Positions 3,103 through 38,479 of a DNA stretch of 64,000 bases are shown one piece after another. The DNA comes from Minisyncoccota bacterium. Its GTDB lineage: Bacteria > Patescibacteriota > Minisyncoccia > Phycocordibacterales > JBAZVT01. The position numbers and the translations under genes are program-made. Every line of letters begins with the position of its first letter. Position 1 is the stretch's first letter. The stretch is taken from positions 15,210 to 79,209 of the forward strand of contig JBAZVT010000002.1 in NCBI GenBank assembly GCA_041660745.1. Direction: 5' to 3'. Below the pieces are notes generated by a model. It saw only the letters and a program-made list of their open reading frames with translations, was not told the DNA's origin and searched no databases.

Positions 3103-3680
3103 TTGCACTTATGAAAAAGATTTTGAAAAAAGAAAATTTAAAAAAGACGAAATCTGGATTTGCACTTATAGAGTCGCTGGTCGCCATTCTTATTTTGTCG
3201 ATCATAACCACATCCGCTTTTTCTGCAATTGCAAGCAGTATAGGATCCATTAATGATGTGCGTGACGAACTGGTTGCATACCAATTAGCAAATGAATCGT
3301 ATGAGATGCTTCATTTTGCGAAGGATACAGCTTATGACGATTGGTCACTAAGCCCCACTGAAAATCCTCCAGAATGGCCTTTGTCAGGATTTGGTGCTGG
3401 TGAATGTGATTCGGGAGGTGACAGGTGTATTGTTAGGATTGTTGGGTCTACTGTAGAAGTTATTACATCGATACCAAACGTTTCTTTATATAATACATCC
3501 GAGGGTAGATTTGTGGATTCAGGAGTAACTGTTCCTGGTGACAAGATATCAAAATTTTCTCGATGGATTACAATTGAGAATACGAGTGATTTATTCTCCA
3601 AAAATATTGCAGTACATGTTCGATGGGAGAGTAAGGGTAGAACAAGAAACGTTGCGATTAATGGTTTGTTGTATAAATAA
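3099..3680 (+). CDS. pseudopilin / minor pilin
   Basis: …KKTKSGFALIESLVAILILSII prepilin motif; ATGA overlap with upstream gene (alt start 3111). Confidence 0.7.
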   Translation: MIALMKKILKKENLKKTKSGFALIESLVAILILSIITTSAFSAIASSIGSINDVRDELVAYQLANESYEMLHFAKDTAYDDWSLSPTENPPEWPLSGFGAGECDSGGDRCIVRIVGSTVEVITSIPNVSLYNTSEGRFVDSGVTVPGDKISKFSRWITIENTSDLFSKNIAVHVRWESKGRTRNVAINGLLYK

Positions 3681-3684
3681 TTAT

Positions 3685-4233
3685 ATGAGAGAAAAGATTC
3701 ACCGCTCACAGGGGGTTACATTATTTATAGCAGTACTTGTTGTTTCCATGCTTTCTTTGGCATCGCTTTCAATATCAAACATTGCCTTGAAACAAGTACT
3801 TATTGGTGGTTCTGTAAAATCTTCCCAAAAAGCCTATGTTGCGGCAGATAGTGGGATGGAATGTGCGTTGTATTGGGATACTCATAACTATGACAATGAA
3901 GGAAGTCTGTTTAATCATACATATTCTCCCGAAACTTTTACTTGTGGCACTGGAGTAGTGAATGATTTGGGGCAAGTAGATGATGGGGGATATGATGGTG
4001 TTTTTGATTGTGTTAATAGTACTACCGGAGAGCCTTACGATGATGGTTTGCTAACTTCAGAATTTGAAGTTGATTACGATTTGCTTGCTTGTTCAATTGT
4101 TTCTATTAAGAAAACTTGTGATGGTGATAAAGTAAACACTGTAGTCAGTGCTCGTGGGTACAACGTTGGTTGTGCTTCTGAAAATTTTGATTCTAATCGC
4201 GTTGTGGAGCGTGCGATTCAGGCAGTGTACTAG
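3685..4233 (+). CDS. pilus-associated protein with N-terminal TM anchor (PilX-like?)
   Basis: MREKIHRSQGVTLFIAVLVVSMLSLASLSISNIAL hydrophobic N-term, Cys/Asp-rich C-term; follows pseudopilin genes in same operon. Confidence 0.5.
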   Translation: MREKIHRSQGVTLFIAVLVVSMLSLASLSISNIALKQVLIGGSVKSSQKAYVAADSGMECALYWDTHNYDNEGSLFNHTYSPETFTCGTGVVNDLGQVDDGGYDGVFDCVNSTTGEPYDDGLLTSEFEVDYDLLACSIVSIKKTCDGDKVNTVVSARGYNVGCASENFDSNRVVERAIQAVY

Positions 4234-4345
4234 GTTTTATAGTGATTCTTTTTGGCGGGGATTAGAAAAGTTATCAACACATGCTCTGGTATGAGTGTGG
4301 TATTATTATACTAACTTTAAAAGTCATATATTAACGATCTTTTTT

Positions 4346-5620
4346 ATGAGGCATTATAAAAATATACTCGGTATTGGTTTGGGAGTTATCAGTATCATTG
4401 GTATTTTATTGTTTGTTATAACATTCCAAACAATGACACTGAAATCAGTACCAGAAGCTCTTGCCGTGACTGGTCCTGGAAGGGCTCTAACAGGGACAAT
4501 TTGGTCTAGTAATGTCGGTTGGGTGAGTCTTAATTGTATTAGTGCAAATGGAGACGAAAGTGCTTGTAGTCCTACGCGGTACGGAGTTTTTTTTGATGAA
4601 GCAACCAAAACTTTTTCCGGTGCCGCATGGTCTAATAATGTTGGTTGGATAACTTTTAATGCTGCAAACGTTTTGAATTGTGCCAATCCAGATACTGCTA
4701 GTGTTGTTTCCACTTCTGGTCAAGCAGCGCAGATACGAGCTGATAACCGTCTTGTTGGCTGGGCAAGAGTTTATTCTGAGATTGGAAGAAGCGATGGTTG
4801 GAATGGTTGTATAGATCTTTCAGGTACTACAAAAGGTACCGCATCTTCGTATGTTCCCGCAACGGGTGTTATAAGTTCGGGGAGTGTGTGGGGTTCAGAG
4901 GTTTTTGGGTGGGGACAGCTTCAAAGTGTGAAAGTGAACAGTGCGGTAACGTTTTCCTGTACAGGTGCTAGACCTCTAAATACTCTCGTGTGCGCAAATG
5001 ATGAATCAGGTCTTACCGCAAACACCACCTGGACCTCACGATCGGGAAGTTCGGGATGCACCACTGCTCTAAAATGTGAATATTATCCAGATCCTAATTA
5101 TCACGATCCAGCCACGAAATGTACTCAAGGTGAATTTAATACTTTAGGATCTGATGCGGTGATGTGTGGTGCTGTTAATAGTACAAATCATTCGGGTAAT
5201 TGGTATAACTTAGGAGAATTTTCCTCTCCATCTGAACCAACTTCTTGTGGTGGCTGTGAATATTACACAAGGGACACTGGCGGGGGTGAGGGAGAAGAAG
5301 ATGAAGAAGTTTCTTGTTCTTTGACGGTTACAGGAACTATCGGGGGTGTTCCTGCTGCTCCGGTTGGTGCTCCTGTGACGTGGACTGTGACTGATAGTGA
5401 CGGCGCTATAATCACTGGAAAGACAGTTTATTCATCGGCATCGGCAACATCTGCATCGTGGGGAATTTCAAATAGTGCTGGGAAAATTATAAAACCATAT
5501 TCTACAGTGGGGTACAAAAAACTTTACATAGATGATATTACTGGTGATGGAGTGAGAAACCAGTGTGGAACAGATCAGGTTTTAATTACCAATAACCCAA
5601 GCGATATTCGTGAGAATTAA
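4346..5620 (+). CDS. large Cys-rich secreted/TM-anchored protein (pilus tip or surface adhesin candidate)
   Basis: N-terminal TM, repeated WSxNVGW(V/I)xxN motif, many Cys, acidic GGGEGEEDEE stretch; last gene of pilus operon. Confidence 0.5.
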   Translation: MRHYKNILGIGLGVISIIGILLFVITFQTMTLKSVPEALAVTGPGRALTGTIWSSNVGWVSLNCISANGDESACSPTRYGVFFDEATKTFSGAAWSNNVGWITFNAANVLNCANPDTASVVSTSGQAAQIRADNRLVGWARVYSEIGRSDGWNGCIDLSGTTKGTASSYVPATGVISSGSVWGSEVFGWGQLQSVKVNSAVTFSCTGARPLNTLVCANDESGLTANTTWTSRSGSSGCTTALKCEYYPDPNYHDPATKCTQGEFNTLGSDAVMCGAVNSTNHSGNWYNLGEFSSPSEPTSCGGCEYYTRDTGGGEGEEDEEVSCSLTVTGTIGGVPAAPVGAPVTWTVTDSDGAIITGKTVYSSASATSASWGISNSAGKIIKPYSTVGYKKLYIDDITGDGVRNQCGTDQVLITNNPSDIREN

Positions 5621-13193: not shown

Positions 13194-13264
13194 CGCGGAG
13201 TAGAGAAGTAGTATCTCGGGAGGCTCATAACCTCCAGGCCTTGGTGCAATTCCAAGCTCCGCAA
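13194..13264 (+). tRNA. initiator-like tRNA-fMet (CAT) with degenerate D/T loops
   Basis: CGCGGAG…CTCCGCA-A acceptor with C1xA72 mismatch, A11:U24, anticodon loop CTCATAA, GC-rich anticodon stem, A73; strong similarity to E. coli tRNAfMet ends; D-loop AGTAGTA lacks GG and T-loop TGCAATT has G55. Confidence 0.5.
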
Positions 13265-13315
13265 CACATAACAAAAGAATCCCGAACTGGGGTTCTTTTG
13301 TTATGTGTTGCGGAG
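13257..13315. terminator. long perfect hairpin (23-bp stem, 13-nt loop) overlapping tRNA 3' end
   Basis: ctccgcaacacataacaaaagaa[tcccgaactgggg]ttcttttgttatgtgttgcggag. Confidence 0.5.
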
Positions 13316-13453
13316 AGAATACAAATAGTTTTGTATTCGTCAGGAATTGCAGGCCGGAGATATGTCGTGAGTCTTCGAGACGACATCGAGGCGGGGTTGA
13401 GAGTACTTTGGCTTTTGAAGGCTTTTGCGACAAAAGACTTAGTAACTCGTGAC

Positions 13454-13473
13454 CAATTCCAAGCTCCGCAACA
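13454..13473 (+). repeat. direct copy of initiator-like tRNA 3' terminal 20 nt (tRNA-linked repeat)
   Basis: caattccaagctccgcaaca identical to 13247-13266. Confidence 0.7.
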
Positions 13474-13475
13474 AT

Positions 13476-13512
13476 AAAGAAAAACACCTTCGTTCCGAAG
13501 GTGTTTTTCTTT
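13476..13512. terminator. bidirectional Rho-independent terminator between convergent tRNA units
   Basis: aaagaaaaacaccttcg-ttcc-gaaggtgtttttcttt. Confidence 0.75.
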
Positions 13513-13541
13513 ATGCGCGGCTGAGCGGGTTAAGACTTGAA
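13513..13541 (-). repeat. degenerate copy of tRNA-Asp 3' end (T-arm 3' half + acceptor 3' strand)
   Basis: minus strand reads ttcaagtc(ttaac)ccgctcagccgcgcat vs tRNA ggttcaagtccgctcagccgcgca. Confidence 0.6.
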
Positions 13542-13623
13542 TCTTACAGATTCAGTACAGGTTTCCCAAAATTAAAAATAAGAATTTTTGATTTTATGGG
13601 AGAACCTCTTCAAGTCCGCTACG

Positions 13624-13643
13624 GAAGCAAAGCAGTTTGCTTC
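13624..13643 (-). repeat. conserved hairpin motif gcaaactgctttgc (tRNA-spacer module)
   Basis: minus strand gaagcaaactgctttgcttc; same core recurs at 14108 and 14359 with compensatory outer-stem changes. Confidence 0.6.
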
Positions 13644-13684
13644 CTCAGCCGCAAAAAAACAGCCCTAAAGCTGTTTTTTCAATG

Positions 13685-13758
13685 CGCGGCTGAGCGGACT
13701 TGAACCGCCGACCCCTCGCGTGACAGGCGAGTGCTCTAACCAGCTGAGCTACAACCGC
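13685..13758 (-). tRNA. tRNA-Asp (GTC)
   Basis: rc: GCGGTTGTAGCTCAGCTGGTTAGAGCACTCGCCTGTCACGCGAGGGGTCGGCGGTTCAAGTCCGCTCAGCCGCG, anticodon loop CTGTCAC, discriminator G; followed by hairpin terminator. Confidence 0.85.
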
Positions 13759-13819
13759 ATAGGTTAACCATAAGAGGATATCAGATTAAACGTTTTTATT
13801 CAACCCTGAAGATCTCTTG

Positions 13820-13893
13820 TGTCGGCGGATGGGATCGAACCATCTACCTTGGGCTTATGAGTCCCACGCTCTAACCAATTGAGCTACGCCGAC
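13820..13893 (-). tRNA. tRNA-Met (CAT), elongator-type (G1-C72 paired)
   Basis: rc: GTCGGCGTAGCTCAATTGGTTAGAGCGTGGGACTCATAAGCCCAAGGTAGATGGTTCGATCCCATCCGCCGACA. Confidence 0.8.
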
Positions 13894-14007
13894 ATTCTCT
13901 TATATTATCCACAAAAAACGACTTTTCGCAATATGGGGTTTGAAAATTTGATTGAAAAAACTGAGTATCTATAGTATGCTCTTCGTATACATTTTTTAAT
14001 TGTATAA

Positions 14008-14080
14008 GCCGTTGTAGCTCAGTCGGTAGAGCACGTCATTGGTAATGACGAGGTCACCAGTTCAATCCTGGTCAACGGCT
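14008..14080 (+). tRNA. tRNA-Thr (GGT)
   Basis: GCCGTTGTAGCTCAGTCGGTAGAGCACGTCATTGGTAATGACGAGGTCACCAGTTCAATCCTGGTCAACGGCT. Confidence 0.85.
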
Positions 14081-14107
14081 CAAGCGCAAAGCGATTGGGC
14101 TGTTGAA

Positions 14108-14129
14108 GCACGCAAACTGCTTTGCGTGC
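14108..14129 (+). repeat. conserved hairpin motif gcaaactgctttgc + inverted T-loop fragment (14132-14143 ccaggattgaac)
   Basis: gcacgcaaactgctttgcgtgc; followed by reverse complement of tRNA T-loop/stem. Confidence 0.6.
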
Positions 14130-14225
14130 GCCCAGGATTGAACGGCGGAACTATATTTTTCAGTAGAAAAATAAGTGAGCTGGTGCCTAGGCAAAACTTT
14201 TTGACGAAAAAGTTTTAGTCGCGGG

Positions 14226-14244
14226 CAATCCCGCTCAACGGCTC
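14226..14244 (+). repeat. degenerate copy of tRNA-Thr(GGT) 3' end
   Basis: caatcccgctcaacggctc vs tRNA caatcctggtcaacggctc (17/19), forms own mini T-arm hairpin gcggg-caat-cccgc. Confidence 0.6.
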
Positions 14245-14261
14245 TATTTTAAAAAACGCAA

Positions 14262-14334
14262 GCCACCTTAGCTCAGTTGGTAGAGCACTACTTTCGTAAA
14301 GTAGGGGTCCGCAGTTCGATCCTGCGAGGTGGCT
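14262..14334 (+). tRNA. tRNA-Thr (CGT)
   Basis: GCCACCTTAGCTCAGTTGGTAGAGCACTACTTTCGTAAAGTAGGGGTCCGCAGTTCGATCCTGCGAGGTGGCT. Confidence 0.85.
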
Positions 14335-14358
14335 CTGAATCCGTGAAGAGACAACACA

Positions 14359-29581: not shown

Positions 29582-29630
29582 ATCCCTGGGTTAAACCTCA
29601 GGCAACTTGCCTGAGGTTTAACCTAGGGAT
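29582..29630. promoter_or_regulatory. 49-bp near-perfect palindrome (24-bp arms) between ABC operon start and lexA end
   Basis: atccctgggttaaacctcaggcaa-c-ttgcctgaggtttaacctagggat. Confidence 0.4.
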
Positions 29631-29637
29631 ACTTTTA

Positions 29638-30207
29638 TTAATACTTCCTGATCACTCCCTTAACAATCGCTGCGATTTTGAGTTCTTCAGTAGGGTAAAT
29701 TGGTTTGTAGTTTTTGTTGGCAGGTTGTAGGTATACGAGTGTGCCTTTCTTGCGGTAATATTTCATTGTCCAACCCCCGTCTACTTCTGCGATAACAATA
29801 TCCATGTCCTTGGGTTCACCTTTGTTGCGCTCTACGATGACCAAATCACCCTCCTTTATACCTTCTTCTATCATTGAGTCGCCTTTGACTTCTAGGAGGT
29901 ATGACGAGTCCTTGTGCTTCACGAGGTAGTCATCAATACTGAGTGTGTCCGTAAGTTCTTCTTCTGTTGCAGAGGGGATTCCAGCTTCCACAAGTCCGAG
30001 AAGGGGAATTTCATCCAGTCGGTCTGCGGGGATGAGTTTACCTTTTGCATCCTTGGTTACCACACCCATCTCCACGAGTTTGTTCACGAGTTTGTACGCA
30101 GCGTTCTTTGACTTGAAACCGACGAGGTTCATGATCTCTTGATACCCGGGCATGCGCTTGTGTGTGCGGTAAAAAGAAATAATTTTATTTTTGTAGGAAT
30201 CGAACAT
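29638..30207 (-). CDS. lexA: LexA repressor (S24 peptidase)
   Basis: N-terminal wHTH, C-terminal KGDSM…K catalytic dyad, AG cleavage region (VEAG). Confidence 0.85.
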   Translation of the reverse strand: MFDSYKNKIISFYRTHKRMPGYQEIMNLVGFKSKNAAYKLVNKLVEMGVVTKDAKGKLIPADRLDEIPLLGLVEAGIPSATEEELTDTLSIDDYLVKHKDSSYLLEVKGDSMIEEGIKEGDLVIVERNKGEPKDMDIVIAEVDGGWTMKYYRKKGTLVYLQPANKNYKPIYPTEELKIAAIVKGVIRKY

Positions 30208-30215
30208 TGTATTTT

Positions 30216-30425
30216 TTATAGTATAAAGGAGGAAACCGTACTAAATGTTTTCAAGAACCAGTGTGATTGGGCTCGGGTGGGGAGCTCACTCAAACGAGAG
30301 CGGAGAAACTTGTGTCGACGGGCTTCTTTTTCATACGAGAGACCCTTGATGATTTTCATATCAATAAGGTCATTCAATTTCTGCAATTCGCACGATATTG
30401 TTTTGTGTAATGTTTGGCTGCTCAT
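30216..30425 (-). CDS. small ORF upstream of and co-directional with lexA (69 aa)
   Basis: Stop 9 nt before lexA ATG (possible translational coupling; lexA lacks SD). Confidence 0.35.
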   Translation of the reverse strand: MSSQTLHKTISCELQKLNDLIDMKIIKGLSYEKEARRHKFLRSRLSELPTRAQSHWFLKTFSTVSSFIL

Positions 30426-30473
30426 ATGTGTTAATAATTATTCTTGCACTAAAATTTATATACACATAGTATA

Positions 30474-30491
30474 GGTGAACAAGTGTTCACC
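30474..30491. promoter_or_regulatory. LexA (Cheo-type) box GGTGAAC-AAGT-GTTCACC
   Basis: GAAC-N4-GTTC core with 7-bp perfect arms, ~50 bp upstream of small-ORF/lexA unit. Confidence 0.6.
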
Positions 30492-30673
30492 AGTCAACAG
30501 TGGATAACCCACTGCAACACAGGGGAGATGAAATCGCAATCCTATAGGCAAAAATATATTGGAAAAACATAGTTTTTTAGGATGAAATTGATTCACAGAA
30601 CTCTCACGGGGATATTGATAATTTTGGCATAAAAAGTAGTTGATAAAACTATTGTTAATTAATAAAAAATAAT

Positions 30674-35328: not shown

Positions 35329-38300
35329 ATGGCGAAAGGCGTACAATATCTAAATACTATGCAAGAATACCTCAAAAATATTGCAGTTAAATTTTCTGAC
35401 CCACAAACAAGTGAAATGGGTTATCGAACTGATCTTGAGAATCTTTTGGTAAAGATTTTTCCAAAAGATAAAAAATATCAGATACATCATGATGCGAAAG
35501 CTGTTGGAGGAAATAAGCCCGATTTTGTTATTTTGAAAGATGGTGTGCCTCTGTTATATATAGAAGCGAAAGATATTGGTGTCAGTTTAGATAAAGTAGA
35601 AAAGAGTGATCAAATGGATCGTTATTTTGGTTATAATAATCTTGTGCTGACAGATTACGTTGAATTTCGTTTTTATCGAAACGGTGAAAGATATGGTGAG
35701 CCTGTTGCTATCTCTACATTTGATAAGACATATCGGACAATAGTAGAACTTAGTCATAATTTTTCTTTACTTTCAAAAACCATTGTGGATTTTGCTGCTT
35801 CCCACAAGGAGCCCATAAAACGTGGAAAACACTTAGCACAGATTATGGGAGGTAAAGCTCAGCGTATTCGGGATAATGTGAAGGAAATGCTCGTTGTGAC
35901 TTCAGATGCGTATGCCGACCTTCTTAAAATGCGTGATGTGGTCAAGGAACATCTCGTCTCAAGTCTTGACGATGAGTCGTTTGCCGATATGTATGCGCAG
36001 ACTCTGGTGTATGGACTTTTTGCCGCTCGGTACAATGATAAGACCGCAGATAATTTTTCACGTGCTGAGGCTCGAGAGCTTGTGCCTAAAACAAACCCAT
36101 TTCTTCGATCATTTTTTGATCATATAGCCGGAGAATCTTTTCCGGACAGACTTGGATTTATTGTTGATGAGTTATGTGAAGTTTTTACCCATGCAGATGT
36201 GCATAGATTAATGCATGAATATTTTACACAGGGAAAAATCTCTGGCGGGGTACATACGAGTCCTGATCCAGTCATCCATTTCTATGAAGATTTTCTGCGT
36301 GAGTATGATACAAAAAAGAAGATGGAAATGGGTGTTTTCTATACACCGCGCCCAGTCGTGCAGTTTATTGTGCGGGCAGTAGATAGTATTCTTAAAAGTG
36401 AATTTGGACTTGAAAAAGGTTTAACCGACACAACAAAAATTTCTGTTGAGAAAAAAGAAACGAACGAAAAAGGTAAAGAGGTAAAAGTTCAAAAAGAATA
36501 TCACAAAGTTCAAGTACTTGATGTAGCGACTGGTACGGGCACTTTTTTGAATGAAGTAATTACTCATATTTATAGTAGCTTTAAAGGTCAAGAAGGTGGG
36601 TGGCCTGCGTATGTTGAAAATGACCTTCTGCCACGACTACACGGCTTTGAGTTGATGATGGCTTCATATACTATTGCTCATTTGAAATTGGGTATGACAC
36701 TTCATGATACTGGCGCTGGGGGAATTAATAAAAGATTGGGTGTTTATTTAACAAATACACTTGAAGAGGCAAAAAATTCCATATGGGGTAATAATAGCTT
36801 ATTTGTGGGTGTGCAAGAAAGTATCACCAAAGAGGCAATTGAGGCTTCGCGCGTTAAGTCAGATTATCCGATAATGTGTGTAATTGGAAACCCGCCATAT
36901 TCCGGCATTTCTATGAACAGGCATTATACAGATAATAATGTGTATAAAGTGGAACCGGGAGGCTTGCAGAAGCTTCAAGAGAAGAAAAATTGGCTTGATG
37001 ATGATTATGTAAAATTTATTAGATTTGCAGAAAGTTTGGTTGAGAAGAATGGTGAGGGGGTCGTGGGAATGATTACTGCACATGGATATATTGATAATCC
37101 TACGTTTCGTGGGATGCGTTGGCATTTAAGGAAAACCTTTGACAAGATTTATGTTATTGATTTGCATGGAAATAGTAACAAAAAAGAAACTGCTCCCGAT
37201 GGCGGAAAAGATGAAAATGTTTTTGATATTAAAACGGGAGTTTCAATGATCTTGGCAATAAAAAATTCTCCCGATGTAAAAAGTAAGAAACTCGGGCAAG
37301 TTTATCAAACTGATTTTTATGGATTGCGAGAAAGTAAATATGAACGCTTGGATGTAGAAAGTATTGAGTCAATTAAATGGAACGAATTACCTGAAAATAC
37401 GGAAGTCTGGCGTGTTGAAGGTAAAGGAAAAAGTGAATACCAGAAAGGCTTTTCTGTTGCAGAATTGTTTCCTAAAAATACCACAGGGATAGTCACTATG
37501 GGGGATAGTTTTATCGTTGACAAAGACAAAGAAATTCTTACAAAGAGAGTTCGGGAATTTTTGTATAACAACGTTTTAGAAAATGAATTAAAGTTTAAAT
37601 ATAATCTTGGTAAAAACTATGCAAAGTGGGTTATTGATAATAAGAAAAAAATTCAAGATGATCCAAGTAAAATAGCTTCACTTTTGTATCGTCCTTTTGA
37701 TAGTAGATATACTTATTTTGATAAAAATTTAGTATGGAGAACACGCGATCAGGTTATGATTCAACTAGTTAATAGGGAAAATATTGCTTTCATTGCCTCT
37801 CGGATAAACAGGCAGGCTAGTCTTGGATACTTCTTTGTAACGAAGACTCTTACAGATTTTCATGTTTTAGACAATGCTCAAGATTCAACTTCAGTTTTTC
37901 CTCTTTATCTTTACGACGAACGAGGAGAAAAGATTCCAAACATTAATAAGGCAATTTGGCAAAAAATAAATGAACTAGTGGGAGAGACTATTCCTGAAAA
38001 TATTTTGGACTATGTTTACGCGTACTTACATTCACCGAATTATCGCGATAAGTATAAAGAGTTTCTAAAGATAGATTTTCCTCGTGTTCCATTCCCTAAA
38101 AATAAGGAAGAGTTCTGGAATCTTGTCCCGCTCGGTACAAAACTTCGTGAGCTGCATTTAATGACTTCGTCAGAGTGCAATAAGCTTATAACCACATATC
38201 CTGTAACTGGGGGCGATGTCGTAGAAAAAATAAAATACGAGAAAGAGAAAGTATATATTAATAATACGCAGTATTTTGGGAATGTCCCTAAAGTCGCTTG

Positions 38301-38463
38301 GGATTTCTATATTGGGGGTTATCAACCTGCTCAGAAATGGCTTAAAGATCGTAAGGATAAAAAACTTTCAAATGAAGATATCGAACACTATCAAAAAATG
38401 ATTGTGGTATTGGTGGAAACCGATAGAATCATGAAAGAAATCGATAAAACTTTTGAAAATTAA
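35329..38463 (+). CDS. Type IIG/IIL restriction-modification enzyme (fused PD-ExK endonuclease + gamma-class N6-adenine MTase; MmeI/Eco57I-like)
   Basis: N-terminal PD…EAK (GGNKPDFVILKDGVPLLYIEAKD), MTase motif IV NPPY (VIGNPPYSG), motif I-like DVATGTGTFL; 1044 aa. Confidence 0.8.
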   Translation: MAKGVQYLNTMQEYLKNIAVKFSDPQTSEMGYRTDLENLLVKIFPKDKKYQIHHDAKAVGGNKPDFVILKDGVPLLYIEAKDIGVSLDKVEKSDQMDRYFGYNNLVLTDYVEFRFYRNGERYGEPVAISTFDKTYRTIVELSHNFSLLSKTIVDFAASHKEPIKRGKHLAQIMGGKAQRIRDNVKEMLVVTSDAYADLLKMRDVVKEHLVSSLDDESFADMYAQTLVYGLFAARYNDKTADNFSRAEARELVPKTNPFLRSFFDHIAGESFPDRLGFIVDELCEVFTHADVHRLMHEYFTQGKISGGVHTSPDPVIHFYEDFLREYDTKKKMEMGVFYTPRPVVQFIVRAVDSILKSEFGLEKGLTDTTKISVEKKETNEKGKEVKVQKEYHKVQVLDVATGTGTFLNEVITHIYSSFKGQEGGWPAYVENDLLPRLHGFELMMASYTIAHLKLGMTLHDTGAGGINKRLGVYLTNTLEEAKNSIWGNNSLFVGVQESITKEAIEASRVKSDYPIMCVIGNPPYSGISMNRHYTDNNVYKVEPGGLQKLQEKKNWLDDDYVKFIRFAESLVEKNGEGVVGMITAHGYIDNPTFRGMRWHLRKTFDKIYVIDLHGNSNKKETAPDGGKDENVFDIKTGVSMILAIKNSPDVKSKKLGQVYQTDFYGLRESKYERLDVESIESIKWNELPENTEVWRVEGKGKSEYQKGFSVAELFPKNTTGIVTMGDSFIVDKDKEILTKRVREFLYNNVLENELKFKYNLGKNYAKWVIDNKKKIQDDPSKIASLLYRPFDSRYTYFDKNLVWRTRDQVMIQLVNRENIAFIASRINRQASLGYFFVTKTLTDFHVLDNAQDSTSVFPLYLYDERGEKIPNINKAIWQKINELVGETIPENILDYVYAYLHSPNYRDKYKEFLKIDFPRVPFPKNKEEFWNLVPLGTKLRELHLMTSSECNKLITTYPVTGGDVVEKIKYEKEKVYINNTQYFGNVPKVAWDFYIGGYQPAQKWLKDRKDKKLSNEDIEHYQKMIVVLVETDRIMKEIDKTFEN

Positions 38464-38479
38464 TTATTAGTTATCCACA

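Follow-up and report, generated by a model that had tools for sequence, protein, structure and literature searches.

A small-protein gene tied to lexA and a candidate LexA operator that forms the promoter spacer in Minisyncoccota and related Patescibacteria

Control of lexA by its own product is a general rule, and an operator of the GAAC-N4-GTTC class (the Cheo box) in that place is textbook and not confined to Firmicutes; sites of this class are bound by the LexA of Firmicutes, Actinobacteria, and Chloroflexi. Small genes for SOS division inhibitors are found beside lexA in several bacteria, with sulA lying downstream of it in Pseudomonas and Xanthomonas, and yneA, sosA, and Rv2719c being divergent from it. 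Other small proteins are cofactors of LexA-type repressors, such as gp7 of phage GIL01, which works with LexA, and DdrR, which works with UmuDAb in Acinetobacter. The Sda protein of Bacillus subtilis is a damage-responsive checkpoint protein that targets a sporulation kinase and whose promoter carries DnaA boxes. The bacteria of the Candidate Phyla Radiation (CPR), or Patescibacteria, are ultra-small, mostly uncultured, and have very few regulators; to our knowledge, almost no regulatory circuit has been experimentally defined among them. A study of the SOS network of Patescibacteria by Sanchez-Osuna, Barbe, and Erill appeared in 2017 (Environ Microbiol 19:3465, PMID 28618189). It is said to have described a LexA motif and regulon by comparative genomics. 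Here, we analyze the lexA locus of a Minisyncoccota bacterium (assembly GCA_041660745.1) in a stretch of 64,000 nt of contig JBAZVT010000002.1 (positions 15,210 to 79,209), hereafter the window, together with the small open reading frame (ORF) that precedes lexA.

A homolog of this small ORF is present directly 5′ of lexA in all of the 78 assessable genomes. The comparison set contained 80 loci with a close LexA (L001–L080), taken from one scan of species-representative genomes, two of which end at a contig edge less than 90 nt before lexA. Searching with tblastn gave a match to the small ORF directly upstream of lexA and on the same strand in 74 loci, and a profile search revealed a diverged copy in four more (E values from 1e-22 to 1e-26). 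Metagenome contigs containing two family members show the same order, small gene then S24 gene behind the same promoter, in six cases out of six. The remaining neighborhood is not conserved, the commonest other neighbor being found in 14 of the 80 loci. Conservation of the small ORF beside lexA in relatives had been set beforehand as a refuting test of a first-pass annotation of the window, and the co-location was found throughout. A gene that stays tied to lexA in every genome examined while its surroundings are reshuffled is a strong candidate for a component of the DNA-damage response. We consider it likely that a single σ70-type promoter, with GTGAAC-N4-GTTCAC as its spacer, drives a two-gene operon that is repressed by LexA, induced by damage, and encodes the small basic protein along with LexA itself. 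The locus contains the following features (window coordinates).

30499–30507, minus strand: DnaA-box-like 9-mer TTATCCACT (consensus TTATCCACA), with 1 nt between it and the −35 hexamer
30492–30497, minus strand: −35 hexamer TTGACT (promoter scan)
30474–30491: candidate LexA operator GGTGAAC-N4-GTTCACC, making up the whole promoter spacer, with the core GAAC-N4-GTTC at 30477–30488
30468–30473, minus strand: −10 hexamer TATACT, abutting the box directly (promoter scan)
30216–30425, minus strand: small ORF, 69 aa, TAA stop, first gene of the predicted operon (ORF list and homologs)
29638–30207, minus strand: lexA, 189 aa (TIGR00498 and Peptidase_S24)
29584–29628: perfect stem-loop with a 20-bp stem and a 5-nt loop, candidate operon terminator (terminator scan)

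Read along the minus strand from 30530, the order is GGG-TTATCCACT-G, TTGACT, the palindrome, TATACT, 42 nt, and the ATG of the small ORF. The spacer (30491 to 30474) reads GGTGAACACTTGTTCACC, and its 18 nt fit exactly between TTGACT and TATACT. The 18-mer palindrome GGTGAACAAGTGTTCACC at 30474–30491 has the perfect 7-bp arms and the 4-nt spacer with which it had been described. Its distance to the small ORF had been given as about 50 bp and is, more exactly, 48 nt from the box to the ATG, and the distance from the stop of the small ORF to the lexA ATG is 8 nt rather than the 9 nt initially counted. The stem-loop at 29584–29628 lies 10 nt past the lexA stop, ahead of genes for an ATP-binding cassette (ABC) transporter, and is unique in the window. 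It is possibly an atypical terminator of the minus-strand lexA operon, a role to be taken with reserve because its T-run lies on the plus strand only.

On its sequence, the 189-aa protein (29638–30207) is a LexA repressor with conserved catalytic residues, as the first-pass annotation had it. It scores 118.6 bits against the NCBIfam model TIGR00498, above the equivalog cutoff of 110.95, and has a Peptidase_S24 domain (PF00717, Pfam E = 1.7e-26). Alignment with the LexA of E. coli pairs VEAG with VAAG at the Ala-Gly cleavage site, GDSM with GMSM at the serine, and TMK with TVK at the lysine of the dyad, and the LexA of Thermotoga likewise aligns at the cleavage site, the serine, and the lysine. 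The N-terminal region gives a weak match to the Pfam LexA_DNA_bind model (E = 0.096); the phmmer alignment to E. coli LexA begins at residue 20 and spans the region of the recognition helix. The organism is a CPR bacterium of the Parcubacteria/Paceibacteria type. The closest homologs are 70%–78% identical, 187–189 aa long, and cover 100% of the protein; they are labeled Parcubacteria, Taylorbacteria, Zambryskibacteria, Paceibacterota, or Patescibacteria. A public call of the Joint Genome Institute (JGI) for the same gene starts at the internal Met19 and gives 171 aa. The 189-aa start is better supported, because homologs of 187–189 aa align over 100% of its length.

The pair TTGACT-18-TATACT is the best σ70-like promoter of the region (10 of 12 matches in the promoter scan). 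Within the window alone, the core of the palindrome is not beyond chance level, as GAAC-N4-GTTC is found in two copies for 0.8 expected, and at least two copies occur in 16 of 100 shuffles. The second copy, at 13284, comes directly after a tRNA-Met gene and lacks the GT/AC flanks. The significance of the palindrome therefore stems from its position in the promoter and its conservation in relatives, not from counts in the window. The same arrangement of box and promoter is found in 70 of the 74 related loci (with at least 12 of 14 matches), and box and promoter were also found in the four loci overlooked by the first tblastn pass. All 78 assessable loci have the box itself, and a further six independent metagenome contigs have the same promoter. 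In relatives, the site reads (G)GTGAAC-N4-GTTCAC(C/T) and is preceded by TTGACx or TTGCAx and followed by TATAAT or TATACT, the −10 being present in almost all. Over 69 related sites, positions 2–7 and 12–17 are essentially invariant and the central N4 is free, which is the signature of a site for a dimeric repressor and not of neutral conservation. The earlier description of the palindrome as a GAAC-N4-GTTC-class site in operator position is thus borne out, as it lies inside the −35/−10 spacer of the lexA operon promoter. The suggestion that a Cheo box would be notable outside Firmicutes does not hold, since the motif class is already known from several Terrabacteria phyla. From its position, cross-species conservation, and motif class, we infer that the palindrome is a LexA operator. 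The promoter would then be a neat natural case of an operator doubling as the −35/−10 spacer.

In seven of the 80 genomes, a gene for a Y-family (IMS/DinB-like) polymerase lies 3′ of lexA and on the same strand (L020, L034, L049, L061, L062, L065, and L078, at locus positions ~3570–5090, or 1687–2994 in L078). The gap between lexA and the polymerase gene is 2–21 nt in five of the seven, where the small ORF, lexA, and the polymerase gene form an operon of three genes. The presence of a Y-family polymerase behind lexA in these loci fits an SOS operon.

The promoter has a further conserved element upstream of its −35 hexamer. The 9-mer TTATCCACT of the window matches the DnaA-box pattern TTATNCACA, and in relatives the corresponding sequence is TTATCCACA, the DnaA-box consensus known from E. 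coli and B. subtilis. Upstream of the lexA −35, TTATCCACA is found exactly in 49 of 70 loci and with at most one mismatch in 68 of them, always in the same orientation and 4–27 nt upstream of the LexA box, with distances that cluster at 6, 12–15, and 23–27 nt. Fifteen other exact copies exist in 486 kb of related loci and all are intergenic, in DNA of which about 71% is in long ORFs. Several of these stand 6–17 nt before a TTGACx-N17-TATAMT promoter, and a search for RNA genes downstream of the other TTATCCACA promoters found none. Hence, TTATCCACA looks like a lineage-wide promoter-upstream element for which DnaA is a candidate reader. In three loci, at ~4278 in L004, ~4051 in L006, and ~4042 in L007 (all on the minus strand), TTATCCACA accompanies a strong promoter (TTGACA-N17-TATACT) that is directed toward the lexA 3′ end. 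Within 400 nt downstream of that promoter, L004 and L006 have no ORF of 50 aa or more that starts with ATG; L007 has only one, of low complexity (152 aa), whose start is 315 nt away and which covers some of the 3′ portion of lexA on the other strand. Neither a tRNA nor an Rfam family was found downstream of the TTATCCACA promoters of L004, L006, and L007, which may drive a small RNA or a small protein gene. The window contains two exact TTATCCACA copies, both intergenic, at 13905–13913 (+) and 38471–38479 (+). Elsewhere in it are a cluster of five divergently oriented tRNA genes (Met, Asp, Met, Thr, Thr), at 13194–14335, and the gene of a 1044-aa type ISP restriction-modification enzyme, at 35329–38463, which has TTATCCACA and a hairpin resembling a terminator directly behind it.

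Across the lineage, the small ORF is truly protein-coding. All copies start with ATG, mostly as MSK, with a median length of 69 aa (range 48–96), and share the core E..LN..ID.KIIKGL(S/P)Y..EARRHK.L. The entropy at codon positions 1, 2, and 3 is 1.20, 0.86, and 1.63, and the median pairwise ratio of nonsynonymous to synonymous substitution rates (dN/dS) is 0.29 over the 35 pairs in which dS is unsaturated; the codon-position pattern and a ratio of about 0.3 mark a real protein gene. In L056 and L066, the nucleotide sequence differs and the amino acid motif is kept. A profile search retrieved 232 clusters at 90% identity, all of them unnamed or "hypothetical protein" and lacking a Pfam domain, and an exhaustive hidden Markov model (HMM) search retrieved 367 representatives at 50% identity, whose lengths almost always fall between 48 and 147 aa. 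The ORF had been called unannotated; strictly, its homologs are called as hypothetical proteins in several public metagenome-assembled genomes, and it is uncharacterized. Two of the calls deserve mention. The 102-aa call P0186, a homolog of the small ORF, runs across its own promoter and box. The 6899-aa protein P0299 matches positions 12–33 of the profile in 19 stretches, which is almost certainly a coiled-coil repeat artifact and not a relationship.

The AlphaFold2 model, built from 122 sequences, is an antiparallel hairpin of helices 3–27 and 32–47 with a predicted local distance difference test (pLDDT) score of about 95 or higher. The family is strongly basic (median net charge +9), and 66 of 74 proteins end in a hydrophobic stretch, often with W-F/L before the last residue, which is L or F in 62. 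The product is thus a basic helical hairpin with an aromatic or hydrophobic C-terminal tail. None of 79 members matched Pfam or NCBIfam, comparison with PHROGs and with PDB by sequence profile gave nothing significant, and Foldseek with the model against PDB returned generic hairpins only, all with E > 1. A division inhibitor, which the first-pass annotation had offered as an example of what the small ORF might encode, is a guess. Membership in the SulA family, a LysM domain, and a transmembrane helix were each considered and rejected, there being no Pfam or NCBIfam match and the AlphaFold2 model being a soluble helical hairpin with a short tail.

The junction of the two genes is usually tight. 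Among 74 junctions, 47 are of 14 nt or less, 12 of these being overlaps of the ATGA or TAATG type, 18 are of 15–50 nt, and nine are of 81–301 nt. The first-pass annotation had noted the lack of a Shine-Dalgarno (SD) motif before lexA and deduced translational coupling from it. There is indeed none ahead of lexA in the window. SD cores, in fact, are rare before all long ORFs (three of 37 in the window, 17 of 218, or about 8%, in related loci), and stand before one of 74 lexA starts and one of 72 small-ORF starts. Because SD motifs are rare throughout the lineage, the argument from their absence fails, and what still permits coupling is the shortness or overlap of the gaps. In 35 of 74 loci, a −10-like hexamer precedes the lexA ATG by 5–25 nt; it arises in part from the stop codon and the C-terminal (V/I)L codons. 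A full promoter-like site before lexA is present in nine of 74 loci, against one of 222 control windows, and the window itself lacks a matching −35. A subset of loci may therefore possess a secondary promoter from which lexA is transcribed with almost no leader. At several promoters, such as those of the small ORF in L029, L049, L059, L063, and L064, the −10 stands only 6–13 nt before the ATG, which suggests that leaderless or short-leader mRNAs are frequent in this lineage.

Together, these data suggest how the operon may work. A LexA dimer on the palindrome would fill the DNA between −35 and −10 and exclude RNA polymerase, so that the operon would be self-repressed; this step is drawn from the position of the operator and the general behavior of LexA. 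When DNA is damaged, RecA would stimulate LexA to cleave itself at Ala-Gly with its Ser/Lys dyad, which would remove the repressor and open the promoter. The small protein and new LexA would then be made together, often with linked translation, as the genes abut or overlap. Once the damage is gone, LexA would close the promoter again. The TTATCCACA element upstream of −35 probably gives a second input, for which DnaA is the obvious candidate. As to the small protein, our tentative proposal, at rather less than an even chance, is that it is a short-lived damage-induced effector, for example a checkpoint protein or a brake on growth or division, whose tail would act as an anchor to a membrane or partner, or as a protease degron.

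Several observations speak against this scheme. The weight matrix built from the 69 related sites matches only the lexA site in the 64-kb window, and no further LexA-type site was found within 3–10 kb of lexA in relatives, metagenome contigs included. As there is no second site, it is by its position, its conservation across species, and its motif class that the palindrome is assigned to LexA. Translational coupling is not universal, since nine of the 74 gaps exceed 50 nt. The small protein has no similarity to known SOS effectors in Pfam, NCBIfam, PHROG, and PDB searches, and its C-terminal helix (54–67) is of low confidence (pLDDT about 55). Finally, the complete linkage with lexA and the first position in the operon suit a partner of LexA at least as well as an effector.

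Such a partner would be an obligate accessory factor, made in fixed ratio to LexA, that strengthens operator binding or tunes self-cleavage, with contact to LexA perhaps made by the hydrophobic tail or by the basic hairpin. Co-occurrence and same-strand adjacency with lexA are complete where other neighbors vary, and the stop of the small ORF often overlaps or abuts the lexA start. The strongly basic character of the protein is compatible with DNA contact, and its conserved polar surface residues (E13, N18, D22, Y31, R37, and H38) suggest a specific interface. However, Pfam, PHROG, and PDB searches linked the protein by sequence to neither gp7-like nor DdrR-like proteins, and nine loci have 81–301 nt between the two genes. 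We regard an accessory role as somewhat unlikely, and as the main alternative to an effector.

The small protein could also be a diverged C-terminal hairpin of ribosomal protein bS20 that binds RNA or the ribosome and has no SOS role. The top eight matches are all bS20 (E = 0.19 in the PDB profile search and 0.02 with phmmer using one member), and tblastn with an approximate E. coli bS20 query sequence matches only small ORFs in 550 kb (best E = 6e-4). The small protein is very basic, and the two have similar motifs, ID..(a)(a)KGL.h...A.RHK..L. Yet all these scores are below significance (hhalign P = 0.045, probability 1.2%), and the bS20 models of Pfam (S20p, PF01649) and NCBIfam (TIGR00029) match no tested member, even at E up to 10. 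The matches are to the E. coli type only and not to the proteins of Thermus or Bacillus, the small protein has no counterpart of the long N-terminal helix of bS20, and bS20 does not conserve the invariant histidine of the family. It would also be odd for a ribosomal protein to be under LexA repression. We find this origin very unlikely; the likeness may nonetheless hint that the hairpin binds nucleic acid.

It is more improbable still that the palindrome is the operator of another regulator and resembles a Cheo-type box by coincidence. In the sequence covered (window, related loci, and metagenome contigs), no second site stands beside a classical SOS gene, as such a regulator would allow. In the window, GTGAAC-N4-GTTCAC with up to three mismatches gives 12 matches for 23.7 expected; Pfam identifies among the large ORFs a ligase, CTP synthase, the type ISP restriction enzyme, RNase J, and others, and neither recA nor uvr genes; and tblastn with RecA and DnaA, using approximate query sequences, finds no match in the window or the related loci. 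A scan of viral contigs for the 18-mer gave 120 unrelated matches, none with the promoter layout or the small ORF. Against another regulator are the presence of the site ahead of lexA in 78 of 78 genomes, the generality of LexA autoregulation, the GAAC-N4-GTTC class of the core, and the Y-family polymerase in the same operon in seven loci. Least plausible of all, and close to negligible, is that the small ORF acts only in cis, its translation bringing ribosomes to an SD-less lexA start and its peptide having no function: most junctions are short or overlapping and lexA has no SD, but the amino acids are conserved over the whole hairpin despite differing GC content and codon usage (L056, L066), the codon-position entropy and a dN/dS near 0.29 point to selection acting at the protein level, genes here generally start without an SD, and some gaps reach 301 nt.

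Returning to the damage-induced operon, a wider proposal would be that Paceibacteria have a two-protein SOS module, in which the small protein is a LexA partner or a new class of checkpoint effector, the promoter integrates damage and replication status, and the reader of TTATCCACA is a global regulator. Taken as a whole, we think this rather doubtful. If true, the LexA operator would read DNA damage and the DnaA box upstream of −35 would read replication status. As TTATCCACA would then mark a small set of other promoters, DnaA or another factor would be a global regulator in genomes poor in transcription factors. The small protein is a candidate for either of two roles in the damage response of CPR, LexA cofactor or growth-halting effector, and is short enough for quick testing. 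Through the TTATCCACA element, promoter architecture and possible DnaA-dependent transcription in the lineage become accessible to study.

The closest described system is LexA (DinR) of B. subtilis with its Cheo box, which also has a GAAC-N4-GTTC core in the lexA promoter and a self-cleaving S24 repressor with a winged helix-turn-helix, which is putative in the protein described here. The B. subtilis box is CGAAC-N4-GTTCG, whereas here the arms are GTGAAC-N4-GTTCAC and the single site is exactly the −35/−10 spacer. In contrast with the B. subtilis-type arrangement, lexA is here the second gene of the operon. The 2017 study of the SOS network concerned the same superphylum and the same regulator. 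Our literature search, whose searched text did not include that study, found nothing on a small protein linked to lexA in Parcubacteria or CPR.

The division inhibitors adjacent to lexA are alike in that a small gene is tied to lexA under a LexA operator (here, a predicted one). Unlike SulA, YneA, SosA, SidA, and ChiZ, the small protein lacks sequence or domain similarity to them, and has neither the SulA fold, nor LysM, nor a transmembrane segment; its gene comes first, is predicted to be co-transcribed with lexA, and is linked to it in every genome examined. The lexA-sulA operon of pseudomonads has the reverse gene order, and parallels the guess of an effector. The cofactors gp7 and DdrR are proteins of 50–80 aa that work with an S24 repressor, as the small protein may. 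They differ in showing no detectable homology to it, and neither is known to head a chromosomal lexA operon. Sda resembles it as a small helical hairpin with a C-terminal tail, which in Sda matters for turnover, and with a DnaA-box promoter; no sequence similarity was found between the two, Sda is not known to be linked to lexA, and the kinase that it targets is absent here. The C-terminal hairpin of bS20 is likewise basic, with a KGL turn and an A-R-H-K stretch, and is the best, though sub-threshold, PDB match, but the small protein fails the bS20 models, is without the N-terminal helix, and carries a hydrophobic tail in addition. In conclusion, the operator is of an ordinary and already known type and the small protein family is new; what is new at lexA here is the conjunction of a conserved small gene, an operator designed as the promoter spacer, and the TTATCCACA element.

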